From: Candidatus Omnitrophota bacterium
GTDB lineage: Bacteria; Omnitrophota; Gorgyraeia; Pluralincolimonadales; Pluralincolimonadaceae
Length of the DNA stretch: 64,000 nucleotides
Direction: 5' to 3'
NCBI GenBank assembly: GCA_028716565.1
Contig: JAQUPL010000001.1
Coordinates: 345,476 to 409,475, forward strand
Under the pieces are notes generated by a model that searched no databases, was not told where the DNA came from, and saw only the letters and a program-made list of their open reading frames with translations. Position numbers and translations under genes: made by a program. Shown here one piece after another: positions 226 through 47,599 of the stretch; the first letter of the stretch is position 1, and the number at the start of each line of letters is the position of its first letter.

Positions 226-1045
226 CGGCTTTCTTCTTTTCGGCCTCGAGCGTTCGTATGGTCACCTCGGCGTCTTTGGCTATCTCTTTGTCCTGTGAAA
301 TATCCAGCTCGATGGCTTTTTTATAAGCCGTGATGGCCTCGTCGATGCGCTTGAGGTCCTCGAGCGCGACCCCTTTATTTATATACGCCTTGGCGTAATC
401 CGGCTTCAGCTCGATGGCCTTATTCAGGTCCGGGAGTGCAAGGTCGCACTGGTTCTTGTAGACACGTGCCATTCCCCTGTTGAAATACAGGACGTACGAA
501 GTGGGATCGGCCGCAATAGCCTTATCGAAATCCGCTATGGCCTTGTTGAACTGCCCCTTATATTCGAGAAGGACCCCGCGGTTCTGGTACGCCTCGGTGT
601 ATTCGGGGCTGACGTCTATCGACTCGGAGAAATTGGATATCGCCTTGTCGAGGTTGCCCTGCGACATATAAGCGATCCCCTTGCTTATGAAAGCATACCC
701 GTAATTAGGGTTCTCTTTTATGGCCTTGTTATACATCGCAATGGCTTCGTCCCATTTTTTCTGCGTAGCCAATTTTTTGCCCTGGAAGACGAGTATGGCC
801 GTCTCCCTCTTCGCTTTTTGTTTCAAAACGTCATCGATGGCGTGCATCTCCAGCCTGGCATAGGGATATACCGAATCGTCGCCCAGTGATTTTTGGAATT
901 CCGCCCTGGCTTCTTCAAGATTTCCCTGAGACGCCAGCTCAATTCCCTTGAAATAAGCGTCGCCGGCGGCCGAACCGGCGCGGCAAAGAGAAGGAAAAAC
1001 CGCAAATACGGCGATCAACATTGCCAAAAAGGTCTTTTTTGTCAT
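203..1045 (-). CDS. secreted TPR-repeat protein
   Basis: N-terminal signal peptide MTKKTFLAMLIAVFAVFPSLCRA, followed by repeated 34-aa TPR-like units (AYxxxGxxyxxxgnxdeAixxyxkAiexdp). Confidence 0.7.
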   Translation of the reverse strand: MTKKTFLAMLIAVFAVFPSLCRAGSAAGDAYFKGIELASQGNLEEARAEFQKSLGDDSVYPYARLEMHAIDDVLKQKAKRETAILVFQGKKLATQKKWDEAIAMYNKAIKENPNYGYAFISKGIAYMSQGNLDKAISNFSESIDVSPEYTEAYQNRGVLLEYKGQFNKAIADFDKAIAADPTSYVLYFNRGMARVYKNQCDLALPDLNKAIELKPDYAKAYINKGVALEDLKRIDEAITAYKKAIELDISQDKEIAKDAEVTIRTLEAEKKKADDSKENK

Positions 1046-1824: not shown

Positions 1825-2609
1825 CTCGTCTCAGCTTTATTGAGCGAAAAATTCAATCTTACGGTCCCCCATTGCTCTTCCTTGGGGCCCGCGGCCTTAA
1901 GCGGCGCGAACTGCCATTCCTTTAGATATCGCATGGCGATTATATCCACCGTCGGATGGCCGGACGAAGACAACCTCTCTACCGCCCCGACCCTGCCTTC
2001 CGGAGATACCAGGAATTTCAATTTTACAGAAAATTTGTTCCCAAGCCTGTCGAGATCAACACCCAAGCTCTCGTCCCACCGGAGGTTGGTTGGAAGCTCC
2101 GGTTTGTAAATGACCTCCCTGAACCTCGCCGGCCCCTCTATCTCCGACGGGTAGGTCTTGTACGCGACCTTTATCTCGTCAAAGGGTTTTTCAGGGACCT
2201 GTTTCGCGTATAACGCCGCGCCGGCCGGAGACTTTTCTTCCATCTCCTTGAGCACATCGAGATCGGAGACGCTCTCCAGTCTCCCGCTCCCGCCCGGAAT
2301 CGCACTATCCCCGGCCATCAACGGGCTGACCGCGAGGTCCCGCAACCGCACGATGCCTGTGTCAGCGGCGTCCCGGGCCTGGCCCGGCGCCGGAAAGACC
2401 GGCCCCTCTTCCAGGATAGAACCTATAAAAGAAACGGCCGATCCCGGCCTGTTCATCGGGGCAGGCGCCGAAACGGATATCCTTACCGAAGAAAGCCAAA
2501 ATAAATGCAAAGCCAGCGAGGCGGCAAGCGCCAGCGCGAAGATATGCCTGCCTGTTATCTCACCTGTGTCGTAGCTATGTTGACCTGCCGTATTCCCGCT
2601 TTCCTGCAT
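1821..2609 (-). CDS. TonB/TolA-like energy transducer
   Basis: N-terminal TM helix, Pro/Ala-rich linker, and a C-terminal approximately 90 aa (VKLKFLVSPEGRVGAVERLSSSGHPTVDIIAMRYLKEWQFAPLK...VRLNFSL) matching the TonB C-terminal domain pattern. Sits downstream of exbB-exbD. Start uncertain, since the ORF overlaps exbD by 54 nt. Confidence 0.65.
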   Translation of the reverse strand: MQESGNTAGQHSYDTGEITGRHIFALALAASLALHLFWLSSVRISVSAPAPMNRPGSAVSFIGSILEEGPVFPAPGQARDAADTGIVRLRDLAVSPLMAGDSAIPGGSGRLESVSDLDVLKEMEEKSPAGAALYAKQVPEKPFDEIKVAYKTYPSEIEGPARFREVIYKPELPTNLRWDESLGVDLDRLGNKFSVKLKFLVSPEGRVGAVERLSSSGHPTVDIIAMRYLKEWQFAPLKAAGPKEEQWGTVRLNFSLNKAETR

Positions 2610-2962
2610 ATATCCCAGACCTCCACTACGCGATCCAGCGAAGTGCCCTTATCGGCCTTTATCAGGATCGAATCTTTTTTGGGCAGCGCCTCTATCCTTG
2701 AGGCGAGTTCCTGGGGCGAGACCGCGTCGCTCCCCAGGTATAATACCTTTTCCCTGGTAATAGTTATGACCTCGGCCCTCGGCCCGGCCGTCTCGGAGGT
2801 AACCGCATTCGGCAGGCTTACCTTGATACCCGCCTGGGTCTGCGCCGAATAGCTCCATGTCAGGAGGAAAAACACAAGAAGAAGCAATACGCAATTGGCG
2901 AGCGGCACCGCCTCGATGAACCGGCTGTCTATGGCTTTCAACCGCGAGAAATTGAACCTCAT
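2555..2962 (-). CDS. exbD: biopolymer transport protein ExbD/TolR
   Basis: 135 aa, single TM (VPLANCVLLLLVFFLLT) plus a periplasmic domain (ITITREKVLYLGSDAVSPQELASRIEAL...ILIKADKGTSLDRVVEVWDICRKAGI), typical of ExbD/TolR. Confidence 0.8.
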   Translation of the reverse strand: MRFNFSRLKAIDSRFIEAVPLANCVLLLLVFFLLTWSYSAQTQAGIKVSLPNAVTSETAGPRAEVITITREKVLYLGSDAVSPQELASRIEALPKKDSILIKADKGTSLDRVVEVWDICRKAGIRQVNIATTQVR

Positions 2963-3586
2963 CTATTCCGCCTTCTTTTCGGAGAGTATGTTAACGAGGT
3001 CAGTCGCGCCTATCTCCATCTCGCGTATTATATAATTTATCCTGTTTACAAAATAATTATACGCCGTGACCGCCGGAATAGCAATAAGTAAACCCGCGAC
3101 CATGGCTATGAGCGCCTGCCATATTCCCCCGGATATGTCCGCCGGCGTAACAGGGCTTAAAGCCGCGGCCTTGACCTGTATCTTCTGGAATATCTCCGCC
3201 AGCCCTATGGCGGTCCCCAGAAAACCCAGCAACGGGCTTATCTGCGCGATGGTGCCGAGCACGCCGATATTCTTCTCAAGCTTAGGTATCTCGTGGAGTG
3301 CTGCGTCTTCTATCGCCTCCTTGACCTCCTGCCTCGTCCTGTCGTATTTCAGTATGCCGGCCTTAAGGACCCTGGGGAGAGGGCCCGGGGACTTGTCGCA
3401 CATCTCGATCGCCTCATCGGCGCGGTTCCTCTTGAGAGAATAGGAGATCTCTCCCATGAATTTTCTCGTATTTATCTTTATCCTCTGCACATAGATGAAC
3501 CTCTCGATGAAAACGGCGAAAGCGATGACCGAACACAGGAGGATCGGCACCATCATCGGGCCGCCCCTTATTATCCATTCCATCAT
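2963..3586 (-). CDS. exbB: MotA/TolQ/ExbB proton-channel protein
   Basis: 207 aa, three TM segments, conserved C-terminal TM pair (GVLGTIAQISPLLGFLGTAIGLAEIF...GGIWQALIAMVAGLLIAIPAVTAYNYF), typical of ExbB/TolQ. Confidence 0.8.
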   Translation of the reverse strand: MMEWIIRGGPMMVPILLCSVIAFAVFIERFIYVQRIKINTRKFMGEISYSLKRNRADEAIEMCDKSPGPLPRVLKAGILKYDRTRQEVKEAIEDAALHEIPKLEKNIGVLGTIAQISPLLGFLGTAIGLAEIFQKIQVKAAALSPVTPADISGGIWQALIAMVAGLLIAIPAVTAYNYFVNRINYIIREMEIGATDLVNILSEKKAE

Positions 3587-3587
3587 A

Positions 3588-6071
3588 TTATTTTACCTCC
3601 CCGGTTTTTTCTGGGACGTTATTTTCCATCCAGTCAAGCCTTTCCCTTGCGTATTTCGCCTCTTGCAGCTTAGTGCCGGAAAGCTCCTCATAGATCTTCC
3701 TCGCGTCTTTCCACCTGCCCTTGTTCTCGAAGAGCGTGGCGGCCCGCAGCCCGGCCCTGCCGGACCATTTCGTCAACTCAGGATAAAGATATTTGACTTT
3801 AAGGAATTCGGCGATGGCCTGGTCCGCGTCACCCGCCTCCTCGTAGCACTCCCCGATCAAAAATTGGGTCTCGGCATTGAAATTACTCTGCGCCTCGGTT
3901 ATAGCGAGGCGGTACCTTTCTATCGCCGCGTTATACAATTTCCTTTGCTTGAAGATATCCCCTATCTTCTTGTCCGCGACCTTCTCGAACTGGGTCCCGG
4001 GATATTTTTCGGTTATGCCCTTAAGCTCTTTTACGGCGTCATCGGCGCGCCCGCTCTCGGCGAGGATATCCCCCACCTTTATCGTGCTCTCCATCGCCGC
4101 CTTTGAGGAAGGATACGCCTCTATTATGTGCTCGAATTTCCGCGTAGCCCCTTCGACGTCGCCGGTCTTATAAAGTATGAGGGCGAGCCAATATTCCGCC
4201 TCGGCCGATGAGCCGCCCGGAGGCGACTTGGCGGCCAGGGCGTCAAAATACGCCTTAGCCTTGGTGAATTGGCCCTTATTGTAATAATATTGCCCCTCCC
4301 ACATCCTGACATCGTCGCTTATATCTGAGTTGGGGTATTTCGCAAGGTAGTCGTCGAATTGAGACAGCGCGTCCTTCTCCTTGCCCCACTGGTAATAACA
4401 CCAGCCTATCTCGTAAAAACTGAGCCGGGCGTGATCGGAAGCGGGATTCTCTTTGATGATCTTGCTGAACGCCGATATCGCCTCCCCGTATTTCGCCATG
4501 TTAAAGAGGCAATTCGCCTGCTGGAAGAGGACCTCGGTTATGTCCTGGCCTTTCGGATATGCCGCGATAAATTTCTGGAAAGCCTCGTTCGCGGATTTGA
4601 AATCCCCGTTCCGGAAATACGAAAGGCCGAGATGCTGGAATGCGTCTTCCCTGAGCCTCGAATTGGGAAAGTTGCCAAGCAGGCTCTGGAAAGCCAGGAC
4701 CGCGCCGTCATAATCGCCGGCCCGGAACATCGTTATCCCAAGCTGGTACTGGGCGTAATCGCAGATGAGGGAATCCCTGTAATCCTTCAGTATCTCGTCG
4801 TAAGACCGCTTCGCCTTCTCGTAATCTTTAAGGTCAAGGGCCGTGTCGCCTATGAGGGATATCGCGCTGGCCTTCAGGTTCCTGTCACGGGACAGCTTCA
4901 CGACCTCCTCGAAATCCTGGACCGCCTTCTGCGGGTCTTTGAGCCGCAGGAGCGTCCAACCGAGGTTATAATAGAATTGCGGCAGGAGCGCCGAGGCCGG
5001 GAACTTCAACAGGGCCTCTTCGTAGATTTCCTTTGCCTCCGCATACTTCTCGAGGTTATAAAGGCAGTCCCCTTTCCACAAATAAGCGTCGCCCAACACC
5101 GCGGAATTCTGGAATTTCATTATCAGCTCGTCATAACTTGCCGCGGCATTTGGATAATCCTTCATGGAAGTGTAACATTGCCCCGTGCCGAATATGGCCG
5201 AGTCGGTCAACGGGCTCTCCGGATAACTGCCGCGGAAGGCCAAAAAAGCACCTAGCGCGGACTTATAGTCCGACGCCTTGAAATACGCCCAGGCTTTTCC
5301 GTATAACGCGAAAGGAGCCCATGCGGCCGAGGGGGTTATCTCAAGGGCCTTGGCGTAGTCTTTCGCCGAGGCCGCGTAGTCCTTCAATGAGTAATCGATC
5401 TCTCCCAAAAGATAATACGCCTCCGGTAATTTCTTCGAGACGGGGAATTCTTTCAAAAAATCCTCAAGCTGTTTCTTTGCGTCAACGGTCTTTCCGCCCA
5501 TGAAGACTGACTCCGCTATCTTATATTTCGCGTCGGCGGCAAGGCTGTTGTTGGGGAATTTTTTTAAAAAGGCGCCGAAAGACTCGACCGCGGTTTCGTA
5601 TTGTTTCAGGTTGTAATAGCACCATCCTTTCGAATAATAGGCGAACGGAATGTATTTGGATGCGGGGAACGAATCTATCACTTTCTGGTATTGGCCAAGG
5701 GCCTGCTTGAAATCCCTGCTCCGGAAATAGACCTCGGCGGACCAGTATGCCGCCTCGTCGTAAAAGCGTTGCGCCGAAGCGGATGAGGCCACCAGGTCGA
5801 ACTCGTTGAGCGCCTGCGCGTTCTTGCCCAGCATAAGGTATGACCTGCCGAGGACGAGATGCGCCTCATCCCTGTATCCGCTTTGCGGATAATTGGCAAG
5901 GAATCGCTCCATCTGCTCCATGGAGATGTCGTAAAACTGGTCCTCAAAAGCCTTTTGGGCAAGGACGAAATCGTCCTTCGCAGGATCTGTCCGCCCCGCA
6001 TCGGCCGGGAAGGCGGCAGGCGACATAACCGTCAGGAATATAAGGGAATAAAGAAAGGATTTGATCCGCAT
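3588..6071 (-). CDS. large secreted TPR-repeat protein, first gene of the ExbB-ExbD-TonB operon
   Basis: The track ORF runs to 6236, but the signal peptide MRIKSFLYSLIFLTVMSPAAFPA begins at the internal Met at 6071, and that start avoids overlap with uvrA. At least 15 TPR-like units (AxYxxGxxyyxxxxYxxAxxxfxxxxxxyPxs). Confidence 0.75.
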   Translation of the reverse strand: MRIKSFLYSLIFLTVMSPAAFPADAGRTDPAKDDFVLAQKAFEDQFYDISMEQMERFLANYPQSGYRDEAHLVLGRSYLMLGKNAQALNEFDLVASSASAQRFYDEAAYWSAEVYFRSRDFKQALGQYQKVIDSFPASKYIPFAYYSKGWCYYNLKQYETAVESFGAFLKKFPNNSLAADAKYKIAESVFMGGKTVDAKKQLEDFLKEFPVSKKLPEAYYLLGEIDYSLKDYAASAKDYAKALEITPSAAWAPFALYGKAWAYFKASDYKSALGAFLAFRGSYPESPLTDSAIFGTGQCYTSMKDYPNAAASYDELIMKFQNSAVLGDAYLWKGDCLYNLEKYAEAKEIYEEALLKFPASALLPQFYYNLGWTLLRLKDPQKAVQDFEEVVKLSRDRNLKASAISLIGDTALDLKDYEKAKRSYDEILKDYRDSLICDYAQYQLGITMFRAGDYDGAVLAFQSLLGNFPNSRLREDAFQHLGLSYFRNGDFKSANEAFQKFIAAYPKGQDITEVLFQQANCLFNMAKYGEAISAFSKIIKENPASDHARLSFYEIGWCYYQWGKEKDALSQFDDYLAKYPNSDISDDVRMWEGQYYYNKGQFTKAKAYFDALAAKSPPGGSSAEAEYWLALILYKTGDVEGATRKFEHIIEAYPSSKAAMESTIKVGDILAESGRADDAVKELKGITEKYPGTQFEKVADKKIGDIFKQRKLYNAAIERYRLAITEAQSNFNAETQFLIGECYEEAGDADQAIAEFLKVKYLYPELTKWSGRAGLRAATLFENKGRWKDARKIYEELSGTKLQEAKYARERLDWMENNVPEKTGEVK

Positions 6072-6105: not shown

Positions 6106-8898
6106 TCAACCTTTTTGGGACAATAACTTACCCAGGTAACTGCCCGTATACGACTTCCTGTTCTTCGCGACATCTTCGGGGCTGCCCGCGGCGACAACTT
6201 CCCCTCCTTCATCGCCGCCCTCAGGGCCGAGATCAATTATATAATCAGAGGTCTTGACCACATCAAGGTTATGCTCTATGACCAAGACCGTATTTCCCTG
6301 GTCTGTAAGGGCATGCAGCACTTTTAGAAGTTTATCGACATCTGCGAAATGCAGGCCGGTCGTGGGCTCATCCAGGATATATAGAGTCCTTCCTGTGGAG
6401 CGTTTAGAGAGCTCAGTAGCGAGCTTCACCCTCTGCGCCTCGCCTCCTGAGAGCGTCGTCGCGGACTGCCCAAGCTCCACATAGCCCAGGCCTACATCGT
6501 TTAGGACCTGCAGCTTCTCCCTTATCCTCGGGATATTCGCGAATAACGGCAGGGCGTCCTCGACCGTCATTTTAAGGACGTCGTTTATTGAATGCCCTTT
6601 GTAAAGGACCTCGAGAGTCTGCTGGTTGAACCTCGCTCCCTTGCATACCTCGCATGTGACATAGACATCCGGCAGGAAATGCATCTCGACTTTTATCACA
6701 CCGTCGCCCTGGCAGGCCTCGCACCTGCCGCCCTTGACGTTAAAACTGAACCTGCCCGGCCTGTAGCCCCTTATCTTCGCCTCAGGCAATCTGCTGAAGA
6801 GGTCGCGGATCGGGGAGAACATTCCCGTATAAGTCGCGGGGTTCGAACGCGGCGTACGGCCGATAGGCGACTGGTCGATGACTATGACCTTGTCTATATT
6901 TTCGGCCCCTGTTATCCTGTCGAAATCCCCGGGTTTCTCTTTAGCCCTGTAAAACTTTTGCGCGAGCGACCTGTAGAGTATCTCGTCTATCAGGGTGGAT
7001 TTGCCTGAGCCGGACACCCCGGTGACGCATACGAACACCCCGAGCGGGATAGTGACGTCTATATCCTTCAGGTTATGTTCGCGCGCTCCTTTTATCTCAA
7101 GGGATTTCCTTCCCTTGAGATCCCTCCTGGCAAGCTTCGGCTCGATCTTAAGTTCCTTTTTCAGGTATTTCGCGGTAAGGGAATCCTTGCATTTCATGAA
7201 CTCTTCGAGCGGCCCGGCGCAGACGACCTTTCCGCCGTGCTTCCCCGCGCCCGGCCCGAGGTCGACGATGTAATCGGCGCTCCTTATGGTCGCCTCATCA
7301 TGCTCCACGACTATAAGGGTGTTGCCTAAGTCCCTTAGAGCCTTGAGGCTTTCGAGTAATTTTGTGTTATCGCGTTGGTGGAGGCCTATAGACGGCTCAT
7401 CGAGGACATAGACGACGCCGACCAGGCCTGAGCCAATCTGCGTAGCGAGCCGTATCCGCTGGGATTCGCCGCCCGAGAGCGTTCCGCTGGCCCTGTCCAG
7501 GGTAAGGTAATCAAGCCCGACGTCGGCCATGAACTTGAGCCTCGAGAGGATCTCCTTCAGCGACTGGCGGGCTATCATCGCCTCTTTTTCGCTGAGGTCG
7601 AGGCCCGTGAAGAACCCCCTCGCCTCTTTTACCGACAACGCGGTCACTTCATTTATCGGTTTGCCGCCGATCTTGAACGCGAGCGATTCCGGCCTGAGCC
7701 TCGCGCCGGCGCATTTGGGGCACGGCAGGACAGACATATATTTATTTATCTCTTCCTTCAGGAATCCGGATTCTGTCTCGCGGAAGAGCCTCTCGAGCTG
7801 AGGGATGACTCCCTCGAACTTCCTGCCCCATACCTCGATATCCGCTCCATAAAGTATTATCTTCCGGATCTCCTTATTTAATTTGTCGAAAGGCGTGTCG
7901 AGATCGAAATGGTAACGGTCCGCGACCTCCCTTAAAACACCGCGGTAATACAACAGGTAGCCCCGACCGCCGCGCTTCCAGGCCTCGATCGATTCCATGA
8001 CAGGCTTGGATCTATCGGGTATCACGAGGTCTGCGTCTATCTCGAGTTTCGTGCCGAGGCCGTTGCAGACCGGGCAGGCCCCGTACGGGGAATTGAACGA
8101 GAATGATCGCGGTGACGGCTCCTCATAGCTTATACCGCAATCGACGCACGCGTAGAGCTCGCTCATGAACCGGTCCTTCCTGCCGTCGTTGACTATTAGT
8201 ACGCCGCTTCCTGCCTTGAGCGCCGTCTCTATCGAATCTGCGAGCCTCCTTTTGGAGTCGGGCTTGACCTCCAGCCTGTCGACGACGATCTCGATCGAAT
8301 GTTTCTTATCCTTGTCTAACTTTATCTCATTCTCCAGCTCCGCGATCCTGCCGTCGACCCTTACGCGGGTATAACCGTCCTTTTTTATCTCCTTAAAAAG
8401 TTCCTTATATTCCCCTTTCCTCCCCGCTATCTTCGGCGCCAGTATGCTGATCTGCGTCCCGGCAGGCATCTTCAGGACCTGGTCGACTATCTCCTGTGAC
8501 GACTGCCTCGCTATCTTCTTCCCGCAGTTATAACAGTAAGCCGTGCCTATGCGCGCGAACAGGACCCTTAAATAATCGTATATCTCAGTGGTGGTGCCTA
8601 CGGTGGAACGGGGATTTGAGCCGGCGGTCTTCTGCTCTATCGATATCGCGGGAGACATCCCCTCGATGTTGTCGCAATCCGGTTTTTGCAATTGTTCCAG
8701 GAATTGCCGGGCATACGCAGACAGGCTGTCGATATACCTCCTCTGTCCTTCGGCATAGATGGTATCGAAGGCGAGCGAGGATTTACCGGAGCCCGAGAGC
8801 CCGGTAAATACTATGAGCTTGTTCCTGGGTAATTTCAGGGAGACATTCTTGAGGTTGTGGACCCTCGCCCCCTGTATATGTATATATCCTTTATCCAT
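6106..8898 (-). CDS. uvrA: excinuclease ABC subunit A
   Basis: Two ABC ATPase modules ([18 protein letters not shown]; LSGGE signatures) and Zn-finger Cys pairs (CxxC). N-terminus [18 protein letters not shown] matches the UvrA start, so the second Met (8898) is preferred over the track start at 8904. Confidence 0.95.
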
Positions 8899-8968: not shown

Positions 8969-9196
8969 TTACCTACCGCCTCTCTTCATCTTCGCCTTAG
9001 ATACATCACCCTGTTTGTCGATGAAGTAGAGATAACCCTTCTCTCTCTTGACTTTGAGTTTGACGACCTTCTTGGGCGCGCCGCCTTTTTTGCCGCCTCT
9101 CGCCATCTTCGCCATCGAGACATCACCCTGTTTGTCAAGGTAGTAGAGGTAACCCTTCTGTCTCTTGATGCCTGCTTTAGCTACTTTCTGAGCCAT
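8969..9196 (-). CDS. small basic protein made of two approximately 32-aa tandem repeats, hypothetical
   Basis: MAQKVAKAGIKRQKGYLYYLDKQGDVSMAKMARGG / KKVVKLKVKREKGYLYFIDKQGDVSKAKMKRGGR. Start chosen at 9196 (GGAGGTGA Shine-Dalgarno 7 nt upstream) rather than the track Met at 9226. Confidence 0.5.
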   Translation of the reverse strand: MAQKVAKAGIKRQKGYLYYLDKQGDVSMAKMARGGKKGGAPKKVVKLKVKREKGYLYFIDKQGDVSKAKMKRGGR

Positions 9197-9204
9197 GTGC
9201 TCAC

Positions 9205-9296
9205 CTCCCTTCTTAAATGAACCCATGGTTTATGCCGTATATGAGCATAAACCATATGGCCGAATTTAATCCCGCCTCAGGCGGGATTTATTCCAT
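9205..9296 (-). promoter_or_regulatory. conserved structured intergenic element, copy 1 (two hairpins plus conserved linker upstream of RBS)
   Basis: Minus-sense: GGGATT-stem (AATCCCGCC/GGCGGGATT), then TAAATTCGGCCATATGGTTTATGC-loop-GCATAAACCATGGGTTCATTTAAGAAGGGAGG. Roughly 70% identical to the element at 46640-46725, with compensatory stem changes. Confidence 0.5.
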
Positions 9297-10106
9297 TTAT
9301 GTCCCTATCTTGACCTTCCCCAGGATACCGTCCAGCGTAGCCATGGCCGAAAGGACCGCCATGTAACTGGTCTTCGGGTTGCCCGGCGAAGGGACGTTCT
9401 CTGTCCTGGCGGTAAGCCTTCCGAACGCGCCTTCTGCCTCTATCTCGTGTATGTTCCTTTTTATCGACGGGGAAGCGATTATCTTGACCCTCGTCTTGCC
9501 CGGGCCGATGCCGCACAGGCTTAATGTCGCCGCGACGTTTATGTTCGCGGGAAAACCTTCCATCGCCTTGAACGCGTCGCCCTCAAAAAGCACCTTATCC
9601 GTCTTTATCTTCCCCAGGTCTATATTATGTTTGACCACATACGGAGCGCCCCTGAACCCCTCGGGCGGCTTCCTGGTGGTAAGCGTGACCTTTTTTATCC
9701 CGGATAACTTCGAGGCCTTGAGCCCGTCAAGCCCGCATATTGCACCGCTCGGTAAATATATATGCGATTTTTTCTTTTCCGCGAGCTTGAAGAGCGCCTT
9801 ATAACTTTTAAGCAGGCCGCCGGTGCTCATCACCATGACATCCCTTCCGGCTTTTACCGACCGGCTCGCTATATCGCCCGAAATTTTGGCGGAGGCAGCC
9901 TCGATGACGAGGTCCACGGAACTTATCAAACCCTGTACCGATGCGACCCTGGGCCTTGCTTTCAACCCGGCGGAAAGGCTTTTTGCCTTCTTATAATCCG
10001 CATCAGAAAGAACGGTGACTCTCGCCCTGCCTCTTAATTTGCCGTCAATATGCGCGGCTATCCTCGAACCGATCGTGCCGCAGCCTATTATGCCGACTTT
10101 TACCAT
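9297..10106 (-). CDS. nadX: L-aspartate dehydrogenase
   Basis: Start at the internal Met (MVKVGIIGCGTIG, Rossmann motif). PSGAICGLDGL, NINVAATL and ENVPSPGNPKTSYMAVLSA match Thermotoga-type NadX. Adjacent to nadA. Confidence 0.85.
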   Translation of the reverse strand: MVKVGIIGCGTIGSRIAAHIDGKLRGRARVTVLSDADYKKAKSLSAGLKARPRVASVQGLISSVDLVIEAASAKISGDIASRSVKAGRDVMVMSTGGLLKSYKALFKLAEKKKSHIYLPSGAICGLDGLKASKLSGIKKVTLTTRKPPEGFRGAPYVVKHNIDLGKIKTDKVLFEGDAFKAMEGFPANINVAATLSLCGIGPGKTRVKIIASPSIKRNIHEIEAEGAFGRLTARTENVPSPGNPKTSYMAVLSAMATLDGILGKVKIGT

Positions 10107-12715: not shown

Positions 12716-13885
12716 TTACTTTAGGAATTTCTTTATCCTCTGGACCGCGGTCTTTATCCTGTCCTTGGAAACGGTGAGGGCCATCCTTATATAACCTTCC
12801 CCGTACCTGCCGAACCCGTTGCCGGGCGTAACGATGATATCGGCCTTCTCGAGCAAAGCCTTTGCCAGCGAGGAGGAGTTATAGCCCGGAAGGTTCTTTG
12901 CCCAGACATAGAACGACGCCTTCGGCTTGGGAACTTTCCAGCCCAGGGAATTCAGGCCGTTCACCAGCGCGTCGCGGCGTTCCTTGTATGTCTTATTGGC
13001 TCTCGCTACCGGTCCCTGCGGTCCTTCGAGCGCGGCGATCCCGGCCAGTTGCACCGCCTGGAATATTCCCGAATCGATGTTCGATTTCACCTTCGCGAGC
13101 CCCTGGATGGCTTTCTTGTTCCCGCAAGCCCATCCTATCCTCCAGCCCGTCATATTGTATGTCTTCGAGAGCGAGTGGAATTCGACTGCCCTGTCCTTGG
13201 CGCCGACCATCTGGAGAATGCTCATCGGGCGGTATTTGTCGTAACAGACCTCCGAATACGCCGCGTCTGAACAGATGAGGATATTGTTCCTGTGCGCGAA
13301 ATCTAGAGCTTTCTTGTAGAATTCTTCGTCAGCGACCGCGCCGGTCGGGTTATTCGGATAATTGACGAACATCATCTTAGCCTTATTCGATACGGACGGG
13401 TCTATCCTATCCAAGTCCGGCAGGAAATCGTTCTCTGCCAGTAACGGCATAAGGTAAGGCATGCCGCCTGCAAATATCGTCCCGTTCTTGTAAGGCGGGT
13501 AGCACGGGTCAGGCACAAGCACGTAGTCGCCCGGATTTATGAAAGCGAGCGGCATATGAGCTATCCCCTCTTTCGAGCCGATAAGCGGCAACACCTCGGC
13601 ATCAGGGTCAAGTTCGACCTTGAACCTCTTCTTATACCATTTCGCTATCGCATGCCTGAGCTGCGGCATCCCTGAATCCAGCGCATAATGGTGGTTATCC
13701 GGCTCGAGCGAGGCCTCGTGAAGTGCTTTTATTATATGGCCGGGCGTCGGCAGGTCAGGGTCACCGATGCCCAGATCGATTATATCCCTGCCCTTGGCTT
13801 TCGCCTGCCTCTTCGCCTTGTCTATCTCCGCGAAAAGATACGGTGGAAGTTTTGCTAATCTTTCGGAAAATTCAAACTCGCTCAT
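12716..13885 (-). CDS. dapL: PLP-dependent aminotransferase, probable LL-diaminopimelate aminotransferase (DapL type)
   Basis: Class I/II aminotransferase (SLSKTYNMTGWRIGW, Lys in SKT). N-terminus FSERLAKLPPYLFAEIDKAK resembles DapL. Embedded between dapB and folK, and there are no dapD/dapC/dapE genes in the cluster. Confidence 0.6.
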   Translation of the reverse strand: MSEFEFSERLAKLPPYLFAEIDKAKRQAKAKGRDIIDLGIGDPDLPTPGHIIKALHEASLEPDNHHYALDSGMPQLRHAIAKWYKKRFKVELDPDAEVLPLIGSKEGIAHMPLAFINPGDYVLVPDPCYPPYKNGTIFAGGMPYLMPLLAENDFLPDLDRIDPSVSNKAKMMFVNYPNNPTGAVADEEFYKKALDFAHRNNILICSDAAYSEVCYDKYRPMSILQMVGAKDRAVEFHSLSKTYNMTGWRIGWACGNKKAIQGLAKVKSNIDSGIFQAVQLAGIAALEGPQGPVARANKTYKERRDALVNGLNSLGWKVPKPKASFYVWAKNLPGYNSSSLAKALLEKADIIVTPGNGFGRYGEGYIRMALTVSKDRIKTAVQRIKKFLK

Positions 13886-46639: not shown

Positions 46640-46725
46640 TACTCCTTTTTAAATGAGGCCATGGTTTACATCGCTTGCGCGATGTAAACCATTAGGCCGA
46701 ATTAAATCCCCCACAGGGGAACTAA
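46640..46725 (-). promoter_or_regulatory. conserved structured intergenic element, copy 2 (tpiA-secG spacer)
   Basis: Minus-sense: hairpin TCCCC-tgtg-GGGGA, then TTTAATTCGGCCTAATGGTTTACATCGC-gcaa-GCGATGTAAACCATGGCCTCATTTAAAAAGGAG, then ATG of secG. Same architecture and linker as the 9205-9296 element, with compensatory stem differences. Confidence 0.5.
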
Positions 46726-46727
46726 AT

Positions 46728-47486
46728 TCATTTTTTACCTTGTCTTACTATTTCGGCGAAGTCCTTTACCTTAAGGCTCGCCCCTCCGACCAGCGCCCCG
46801 TCGATATCAGGCCCGGCCATAATACTCTTTGTGTTATCGGGTTTTACGCTCCCGCCGTATTGTATCCTCACTTTTGAGGAGACATCCTCGCCGTAAGCTT
46901 TCTTGAGCAGCTCGCGGATATATTTATGGACTTCCTGCGCCTGTTCCGGCGTAGCGGTCCTTCCGGTCCCGATCGCCCAGACAGGTTCATAGGCAATGAC
47001 TATTTTGGCGACATCCTCTTTAGGGAGGCCTGCTAACCCGCCTTCTACATGGTTCTTTACCACATCAAAAGTCTTTCCGGAATCACGCTCTTCGAGGCGC
47101 TCGCCCACGCACATTATCGGCGTAAGGCCGTGCTTTAAAGCGGCTTTAACCTTCTTGTTAACCGTCTCATTAGTCTCGTGGAAATACGTCCTGCGCTCAG
47201 AATGCCCGATTATGCAGAATTTACAGCCGAGGTCAGTGAGCATCTTAGGAGCTACTTCACCGGTGTAGGCGCCTTCCTCTTCCCAGTAGATATCCTGCGC
47301 GCCGTATCCGATGTTCGAGCCATTGAGCGCTTCTGCGACTTTAGATATCGAGGTAAAAGGCGGACAGACCACCACCTCTACCGCGGTCTCGTCTTTTAAT
47401 TCATTCTTAAGACCGTTGACGAGCTCAAGCGCCTCGCCTGAGGTCTTGTACATCTTCCAGTTGCCTGCGATTATAGGTTTTCTCAT
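46728..47486 (-). CDS. tpiA: triose-phosphate isomerase
   Basis: AGNWKM, catalytic His/Glu context (IGHSERR, AYEPVWAIGTG). Confidence 0.95.
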   Translation of the reverse strand: MRKPIIAGNWKMYKTSGEALELVNGLKNELKDETAVEVVVCPPFTSISKVAEALNGSNIGYGAQDIYWEEEGAYTGEVAPKMLTDLGCKFCIIGHSERRTYFHETNETVNKKVKAALKHGLTPIMCVGERLEERDSGKTFDVVKNHVEGGLAGLPKEDVAKIVIAYEPVWAIGTGRTATPEQAQEVHKYIRELLKKAYGEDVSSKVRIQYGGSVKPDNTKSIMAGPDIDGALVGGASLKVKDFAEIVRQGKK

Positions 47487-47599
47487 TATATCCTTTCAAC
47501 CAATAACCTTTATGAGGGCGGGTCCTGCCTGCCGAGCACCTCGTCCCTTTTGCTTCGTGCAAAAGGGCCAAGGGCTCCGTCGGCAGTCACCCGCTGACA

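Follow-up and report, generated by a model that had tools for sequence, protein, structure and literature searches.

DNA folded into a hairpin is recognised as such in several systems: REP sequences by RAYT transposases, the ends of IS200/IS605 elements by TnpA and attC sites by integron integrases. An attC site is built from an outer box, an unpaired central loop, an inner box, extrahelical bases and a variable terminal structure, with AAC/GTT triplets, and the Correia elements are associated with a TA duplication. The Omnitrophota and many Planctomycetota are uncultured, and to our knowledge nothing is known about their small repeats. Among the described small repeats, the ERIC (IRU) elements are imperfect palindromes of about 127 bp that form a long hairpin in mRNA; elements of this type carry terminal inverted repeats, target duplications and a flanking TA, and are found in transcribed intergenic regions and at gene 3' ends in either orientation (PMC3184786). 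REPs are shorter (20-40 bp), occur in high copy number and end in a GTAG or CGTC tag (PMC3733652). SPRITE, the pneumococcal repeat resembling a Rho-independent terminator, and the Correia elements are co-transcribed repeats at gene ends with terminator-like hairpins (PMC3184786), the latter having 26-bp inverted repeats according to the title of the 1986 Correia paper cited there.

Two tracts in the window, i.e. the whole stretch of 64,000 nt analysed here, are probably copies of a small palindromic insertion element that represents a new family and may be compared with ERIC, REP and SPRITE. The tracts were delimited from the sequence, and the conserved unit in each of them from sequence, fold and covariance-model scores, together with strain variants in the case of copy 1. 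The features referred to below are as follows:

9297-9299, minus strand: stop codon (TAA) of nadX; the inserted tract starts at the next base.
Between the nadX stop codon (9299-9297) and the start of the gene for a 75-aa protein (9196), minus strand: copy 1 tract.
9268-9288, minus strand: hairpin 1 of copy 1, AATCCCGCC TGA GGCGGGATT.
9213-9269, minus strand: hairpin-2 domain of copy 1, the conserved unit.
46728-46730, minus strand: stop codon (TGA) of tpiA; the inserted tract starts at the next base.
Between the tpiA stop codon (46730-46728) and the start of secG (46631), minus strand: copy 2 tract.
46705-46723, minus strand: hairpin 1 of copy 2, AGTTCCCC TGT GGGGGATT.
46649-46706, minus strand: hairpin-2 domain of copy 2.

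The Pfam hits on record for the flanking genes are Asp_DH_C (nadX), TIM (tpiA) and SecG (secG). A sequence-only reading had described two minus-strand copies with covarying hairpins at these positions, and both could be placed, folded and aligned as it had proposed, including a real compensation in the inner stem (TGC/GCA in one copy, CATCGC/GCGATG in the other). In a pairwise alignment the copies showed 79% column identity with conserved blocks in common, and the pattern of the 25-nt tail matched twice in the window, where no match is expected by chance. Each copy folded into two adjacent hairpins (about -44 kcal/mol) with z-scores of -5.9 for copy 1 and -7.6 for copy 2, and no shuffled sequence folded equally well. 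Hairpin 2 of copy 1 comprises an outer stem (TTAAAT/ATTTAA on the minus strand), an internal loop (TC/TC on the minus strand, equivalent to GA/GA on the plus strand), a decayed 4-bp stem (GGCC/GGGT), an AT bulge, a ATGGTTTATGC/GCATAAACCAT stem and a 9-nt loop. Copy 1 is present with small differences in sister strains, and since several of these have GGCC in place of GGGT, the 4-bp stem is restored there (GGCC/GGCC). In copy 2, hairpin 2 reads AATTC, GGCC, a TA bulge, ATGGTTTACATCGC, a GCAA loop, GCGATGTAAACCAT, GGCC and TCATT in this order; its hairpin 1, the stem of which begins 4 nt after the tpiA stop codon, contains two G-U pairs on the minus strand, which are two C-A mismatches on the plus strand. 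The covariance-model scores were 70.2 bits (R1) and 65.3 bits (R2) for copy 1 and 78.3 bits (R1) and 71.6 bits (R2) for copy 2, and with filters off the model found no third copy in the 64-kb window.

A coding reading of the tracts, based on an ATG at 9226 in frame with the 75-aa gene and on an ORF ('MRPWF') on the opposite strand, was rejected because the tip lengths differ by non-multiples of three and the stems covary as pairs. ARAGORN found neither a tRNA nor a tmRNA in the window, and a tRNA or tmRNA reading of the element was likewise rejected.

In the window, each copy is immediately followed in sense orientation by a Shine-Dalgarno sequence and a small gene, an arrangement that would suit a cis-regulatory leader or attenuator of secG and the 75-aa gene, one of the functions initially considered. 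However, the element was absent upstream of both genes in close relatives. The tpiA-secG spacer measured only 33 or 17 nt in relatives whose SecG is 93% or 78% identical and which retain the order gap-pgk-tpiA-secG-opp, and the nadX-75aa spacer 25 or 38 nt in relatives that share 89% or 85% identity in the 75-aa protein and retain the order panC-panD-(nadA)-nadX-75aa-uvrA. A third pair was found in another Omnitrophota lineage, where the junction between rpsS and rplV spans 58 nt with the element in locus L122 versus 15 nt in L125, the element occupying the entire spacer from the rpsS stop codon to the rplV start codon in L122. In all three pairs of filled and empty sites the position of the upstream stop codon was unchanged and the element began at the next base, and in both window pairs the Shine-Dalgarno sequence was already present in the empty site. 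Short spacers at the same junctions in close relatives show that, to judge from these alignments, both window copies are insertions; loss in the relatives rather than gain at the window junctions may be an alternative. The empty orthologous sites, with their pre-existing Shine-Dalgarno sequences, largely refute a leader; moreover, folding revealed no pairing common to both copies that would sequester the ribosome-binding site, and the neighbours of the copies found elsewhere (see below) are unrelated genes in both orientations. We therefore regard a leader, an attenuator or any other operon-specific element as highly improbable.

Hallmarks of transposition were also looked for at the filled sites. 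No target-site duplication could be established in the three filled-versus-empty comparisons: the candidate duplications at the window sites, short and A/T-rich (TAA and TAAAAA), overlap the covarying outer stem, and the empty sites are highly diverged. No terminal inverted repeats were found beyond the hairpin itself, the 5-bp outer stem being an inverted repeat, but one that covaries between copies. None of the features of ERIC-type elements, namely terminal inverted repeats, target duplications and a flanking TA, was found here. The window genes checked were all housekeeping genes; neither among them nor among the Pfam hits on record for the syntenic loci was a transposase or integrase present, no RAYT gene such as accompanies REPs occurred among the window genes checked, and no candidate for a mobilising enzyme was found anywhere.

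Further copies were identified by pattern and covariance-model searches. The exact-pattern scan, which covered one genome per species, found the core (AATTCGGCC-NN-ATGGTTTA-[variable]-TAAACCATGGCCTCATT) in four other MAGs, namely the Omnitrophota L012 and L014 and the Planctomycetota L013 and L017 (labelled Planctomycetia or Planctomycetales), besides two matches that appear to be due to chance. A looser pattern retrieved eight metagenome contigs, six of them distinct, in which the outer stem that is identical in the window pair covaries (ATGGCTTA/TAAGCCAT and ATGGTTTG/CAAACCAT). A covariance model built from the pattern-scan copies then uncovered divergent copies: a second copy in L012, three copies in L020 with stems such as TCAAGTTA/TAACTTGA and GCAC/GTGC, and a tandem degenerate copy in L017. 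Together, these searches yielded 16 usable copies from about 10 lineages of Omnitrophota and Planctomycetota, which speaks against a recent local duplication confined to the two tracts. A near-identical core occurred in a host that shares only 55% GAPDH identity with the window; searching by exact pattern favours such near-identity of the core. Copy number was modest, with two copies in the 64-kb window, and no copy at all was present in the loci retrieved from close relatives, which amount to about 350 kb and are largely redundant. In L012, a weak divergent copy (945-1044, plus strand; 27 bits, E about 8e-4) lies inverted beside copy L012a, and the two would form a head-to-head doublet reminiscent of a REPIN.

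No counterpart of the element was found in the collections searched. A scan of the window against Rfam 15, one of the checks suggested along with the sequence-only reading, gave no match at gathering thresholds, and when the limit was relaxed to E <= 10 the hits, of 13-18 bits to microRNA precursors and to sRNAs that contain a terminator, were all at chance level; gathering and permissive Rfam scans of the further loci returned nothing relevant. The pattern scan of IMG/VR viral contigs produced 62 matches, all in unrelated coding sequence, the plasmid and phage collections contained chance matches of 18-27 nt only, and we found no description of such an element in the literature. The copies probably represent a family not described before, whose members are non-coding palindromes of about 60-130 bp that occur in Omnitrophota and Planctomycetota. 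In size and fold they correspond to a MITE, being shorter than about 200 bp, non-coding, folded into a long stem-loop and variably present or absent among relatives.

For the structural analysis the 16 copies were aligned on the strand opposite to the sense of the downstream genes in the window. In this alignment the conserved unit is one long irregular hairpin of about 57-75 bp, composed from the outside inwards of:

A 5-bp outer stem ending in an invariant AAU/AUU (AAT/ATT in DNA).
A 2x2 internal loop, invariant GA/GA (TC/TC on the strand read with the downstream genes).
A 4-bp stem, usually GGCC.
A 2-nt bulge on one side, free in sequence.
A 10-bp stem followed by a variable tip.

Across the 16 copies 90.5% of the cells were paired and 15 of the 21 pairs changed on both sides, values of pairing and covariation that none of 500 shuffles reached, while slid controls were paired to 25-42%; the conserved structure with base-pair covariation claimed for the two tracts is thereby borne out. 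At one position of the outer stem all four combinations (A-U, C-G, G-C and U-A) occur. In 9 of the 16 copies, as read by eye from the alignment, the tip starts and ends with GA and has two covarying pairs around a small loop, often GAA, in between. Hairpin 1, with a base of AUCCY...RGGAU, is present in about 12 of the 16 copies as judged by eye; since L014, the orthologue of window copy 1, lacks hairpin 1, this hairpin is an optional module. Together with the GGGT of copy 1, its loss in L014 would be consistent with weak constraint on copy 1. Copies within one genome are not near-identical and differ by compensatory changes, which is more readily explained by long-term structural selection than by a recent burst.

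This anatomy sets the element apart from the systems it most resembles. Like ERIC, it is a small imperfect palindrome of low to moderate copy number that forms a long hairpin, lies in transcribed intergenic regions and at gene 3' ends in either orientation, and is conserved in sequence across species at differing locations; unlike ERIC, with which it has no sequence similarity and from whose hosts it is separated by phylum, its covarying helices are interrupted by an internal loop that never varies and by a bulge. With REP and REPIN it shares an extragenic hairpin, an imperfect stem with mismatches that matter, occasional doublets (L012) and probably recognition as folded single-stranded DNA, and of the possibilities raised by the sequence-only reading a REP-like repeated element comes closest to the evidence; in contrast to REPs, however, it is 60-130 bp long, has no GTAG or CGTC tag in its consensus and occurs only twice in 64 kb. 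SPRITE and the Correia elements are likewise gene-end repeats with a terminator-like hairpin, to which hairpin 1 may be compared, but they are unrelated in sequence and the U-tract of our element is weak and inconsistent. We regard the family as new, and its architecture as a further variation on that of small palindromic insertion elements; its hosts belong to poorly studied phyla.

The GA motifs also recall known RNA structures. The hammerhead ribozyme has a three-way junction, a CUGANGA...GAAA core and a UH cleavage site. In the classic hammerhead ribozyme, stem II (domain 2) has a GGCC stem extended by tandem G-A pairs, and the base of hairpin 2 on the plus strand reads UGA-GGCC...GGCC-GAA. 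Unlike in the hammerhead, however, the flanking AAU and AUU pair as a continuous helix without a three-way junction, and neither C3, U4, G5 and A15.1 nor the other core positions are conserved; in addition, the Rfam hammerhead models did not match the element. Hammerhead and K-turn readings of the GA motifs were rejected on the basis of this anatomy.

G-U and A-C mismatches, counted with a view to the acting strand and to whether DNA or RNA acts, were equally rare and favour neither alternative: among 336 cells, 298 were Watson-Crick pairs, 6 were G-U and 8 were A-C. The wobble pairs in hairpin 1 of copy 2 and the GCAA tetraloop of this copy favour the sense of the downstream genes, and the GA loops would favour the opposite strand. 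The latter would be transcribed if the element were an independent sRNA gene that starts near AAUGAGG, continues through hairpin 2 and ends at hairpin 1 as its terminator; such an RNA would be complementary to the downstream gene at its ribosome-binding site and start codon. Tandem G-A pairs are a stable RNA motif. In line with such an sRNA, the invariant loops on this strand form tandem G-A pairs at the base of all 16 copies, the same motif forms the tip in the 9 copies mentioned above, hairpin 1 has a terminator-like plus-strand score in copy 1 and, in L017, a promoter-like TTGATT-16-TAAAAT (noted by eye, not by a tool scan) stands in front of the element. However, no promoter-like site was detected near either window copy on either strand, nor was a consistent one seen elsewhere. 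Hairpin 1 is optional, its tails vary and most copies have no U-tract after it; it passed a simple terminator scan on the plus strand in copy 1 but on the minus strand in copy 2. The U-rich plus-strand tail previously noted after hairpin 1 holds for copy 1 (TTTATTCCATTT) but not for copy 2, where the T-run lies 12 nt past the stem and hairpin 1 itself has the two C-A mismatches on this strand. In four to five loci, moreover, the opposite strand is merely part of an operon transcript or a pre-tRNA. Hence, the cis-antisense sRNA suggested at the outset is very unlikely.

The genes flanking the copies are unrelated to one another, including ispE/spoVG, gap/nikR, murB/DUF3592, an MNT-HEPN pair, a Ski2-like helicase gene, a gene for a ShlB-type transporter (shlB), an RHS-like ORF (judged by eye from its translation), rpsS/rplV and a split tRNA gene. 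Relative to their neighbours, copies are in sense orientation in about six loci and against them in four to five, and some follow a gene, run antisense to one, precede a promoter or sit within a tRNA insert, which counts against a leader. These contexts show that the position of the element is independent of the neighbouring genes and of orientation. Absence at orthologous junctions, this independence, the patchy spread across phyla and the decay of copies jointly argue against a leader and against an antisense sRNA.

Regarding the window itself, the GC skew of the plus strand was negative across 1-64000 (-0.05 to -0.16), which suggests that the minus strand is the leading strand; with so few independent copies, this gives no indication of a preferred orientation of the element relative to replication. 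All but one of the nameable genes in the window (1-64000) are on the minus strand, with overlaps or very short spacers between them, and this strand bias together with the skew fits a single replichore arm with co-directional genes.

Two of the loci contain more complex arrangements. In L020, at about 1890-3500 on the minus strand, a block of 1.55 kb is bounded on both sides by a direct repeat of 36 nt, ATTAATCCACTCAACATCAAGG[G/A]GGCTGTTA[C/T]G. Within the block are two elements in tandem, a promoter close to the consensus (TTGACA-17-TATTAT), a toxin-antitoxin pair of the MNT-HEPN type and a third element; the second copy of the repeat supplies the next gene with its 5' UTR and start codon. 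The block looks like a cassette-type insertion. An attC-like folded-hairpin site, acted on by an unrecognised site-specific recombinase, with the sites flanking mobile gene cassettes, was considered: the three L020 copies bracket the toxin-antitoxin pair within the direct repeats, and the architecture of attC is paralleled by a conserved outer box, a central loop that is unpaired, extrahelical bases in the inner box and a variable tip, with structure kept more than sequence. The conserved triplets, however, are AAT/ATT and not AAC/GTT, there is no integrase nearby and no cassette array, and at the three filled-versus-empty sites the hairpin alone was inserted, with no cassette gene. An attC-like site is therefore quite unlikely.

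The second arrangement is a tRNA gene in L021 (1213-1578), located in a tRNA cluster with tRNA-Pro and tRNA-His on either side, whose anticodon loop is interrupted by an insert of 289 nt; with this insert removed at CCTT|...GGATG|, ARAGORN predicts a 77-nt tRNA Arg-UCU. The insert is suspected to be a group I intron, its boundaries (U|...G|) following the rules for such introns, and the element corresponds to its first approximately 90 nt. It could thus be argued that the element is a fragment from the 5' part of a group I intron. Against this, the Rfam group I model did not match the insert even at E <= 10, the similarity to the Azoarcus intron was not significant, with 47 of 500 shuffles scoring as high, and the other copies have no adjoining core-like sequence. 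Moreover, the remainder of the L021 insert can form P1-like and P2-like pairings of its own, as judged by eye, suggesting that the element was inserted into a loop. An intron fragment is consequently barely credible.

The main rival to an insertion family is a generic RNA role (stability, processing or partial termination via hairpin 1), which is possible. According to this explanation the element would be a domesticated RNA module, kept because it serves as a processing, stability or insulator element in either orientation, for example as an RNase III or RNase E site or as a 3'-end protector. Copies are always in transcribed intergenic positions, often at gene 3' ends, their fold is very stable, compensatory changes keep the structure even among copies of one genome, and in L122 the whole rpsS-rplV spacer of an essential operon is filled; ERIC elements behave likewise (PMC3184786). 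However, close relatives have the same junctions without the element, the stem of window copy 1 is decayed, and a strand-independent function leaves the invariant, strand-asymmetric GA/GA loop and the bulge unexplained. We consider that selection for such a module is an unlikely reason for the presence of the element.

Returning to an insertion family, we propose that the element is non-autonomous DNA that would be spread in trans by an enzyme recognising the folded hairpin; the invariant loop and bulge inside covarying helices suggest that a protein makes contact with this fold. The element would persist where its insertion is harmless, in the short gap that separates a stop codon from the ribosome-binding site or promoter after it, and would then be co-transcribed as a compact hairpin in whichever orientation it had landed, with an effect on its neighbours that would be generic at most (mRNA stability or partial termination). 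A more specific version, in which the element is a substrate of structure-specific mobilisation of single-stranded DNA via the G-A loop and bulge, inserts without obvious duplication after stop codons or in hairpin loops and crosses between Omnitrophota and Planctomycetota, is speculative and, taken as a whole, has a low probability; the L021 anticodon-loop insert and the rpsS-rplV junction would be examples of such insertion.

Neither in essential, densely packed operons (gap-pgk-tpiA-secG and that of the ribosomal proteins) nor in a tRNA gene does the hairpin element kill its host. It is useful as a marker of recent genome change, and comparative screens may mistake it for a 'conserved RNA motif'. 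Since the invariant non-canonical loop and the bulge point to a specific partner, it is also a lead to an enzyme recognising folded DNA or RNA. For annotation purposes, the two tracts should not be labelled leaders of secG or of the small protein.

The 75-aa protein encoded downstream of copy 1 (8969-9196, minus strand) contains two repeats of KGYLY(Y/F)(L/I)DKQGDVS.AKM.RGG and is small and basic, as are the other members of its very large family (2726 matches at E <= 0.001), for which no Pfam domain is on record. Where the source was named, the matches came mostly from Omnitrophota, with single ones from Endomicrobium, Patescibacteria and Woesearchaeota, and in the relatives checked the gene lies between nadX and uvrA.

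Other repeats were observed in the same operons. The 113-nt pgk-tpiA spacer of the window (47487-47599, minus strand), which folds at -55 kcal/mol, is filled by a different, G+C-rich, long imperfect hairpin (GCGGGTGACTGCCGACGGAGCCC...GGCAGGCAGGACCCGC) with a single occurrence in the window; at this junction 2 or 35 nt are present in relatives. It is a second, unrelated hairpin insertion in the gap-pgk-tpiA-secG operon. Locus L122 contains four copies of another palindromic repeat, rich in GCATAAG (2188-2311, 7836-7954, 12843-12970 and 13190-13410), within the ribosomal-protein operon of the L022 species, several spacers of which are much longer than in L125. Moreover, free-standing mini-hairpin motifs, GAGCGAAGCGAGG and GAACGAAGTGAGAGG in mRNA sense, are located in L122 in the spacers upstream of the S3, L16 and L24 genes (3949-4037, 4710-4819 and 6180-6248), and one of them is split by a long G+C-rich hairpin with GCGAAGC on both sides. 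These mini-hairpins share the motif GA-NN-GAA-NN-GA with many copies of the element, where it forms the hairpin 2 tip.
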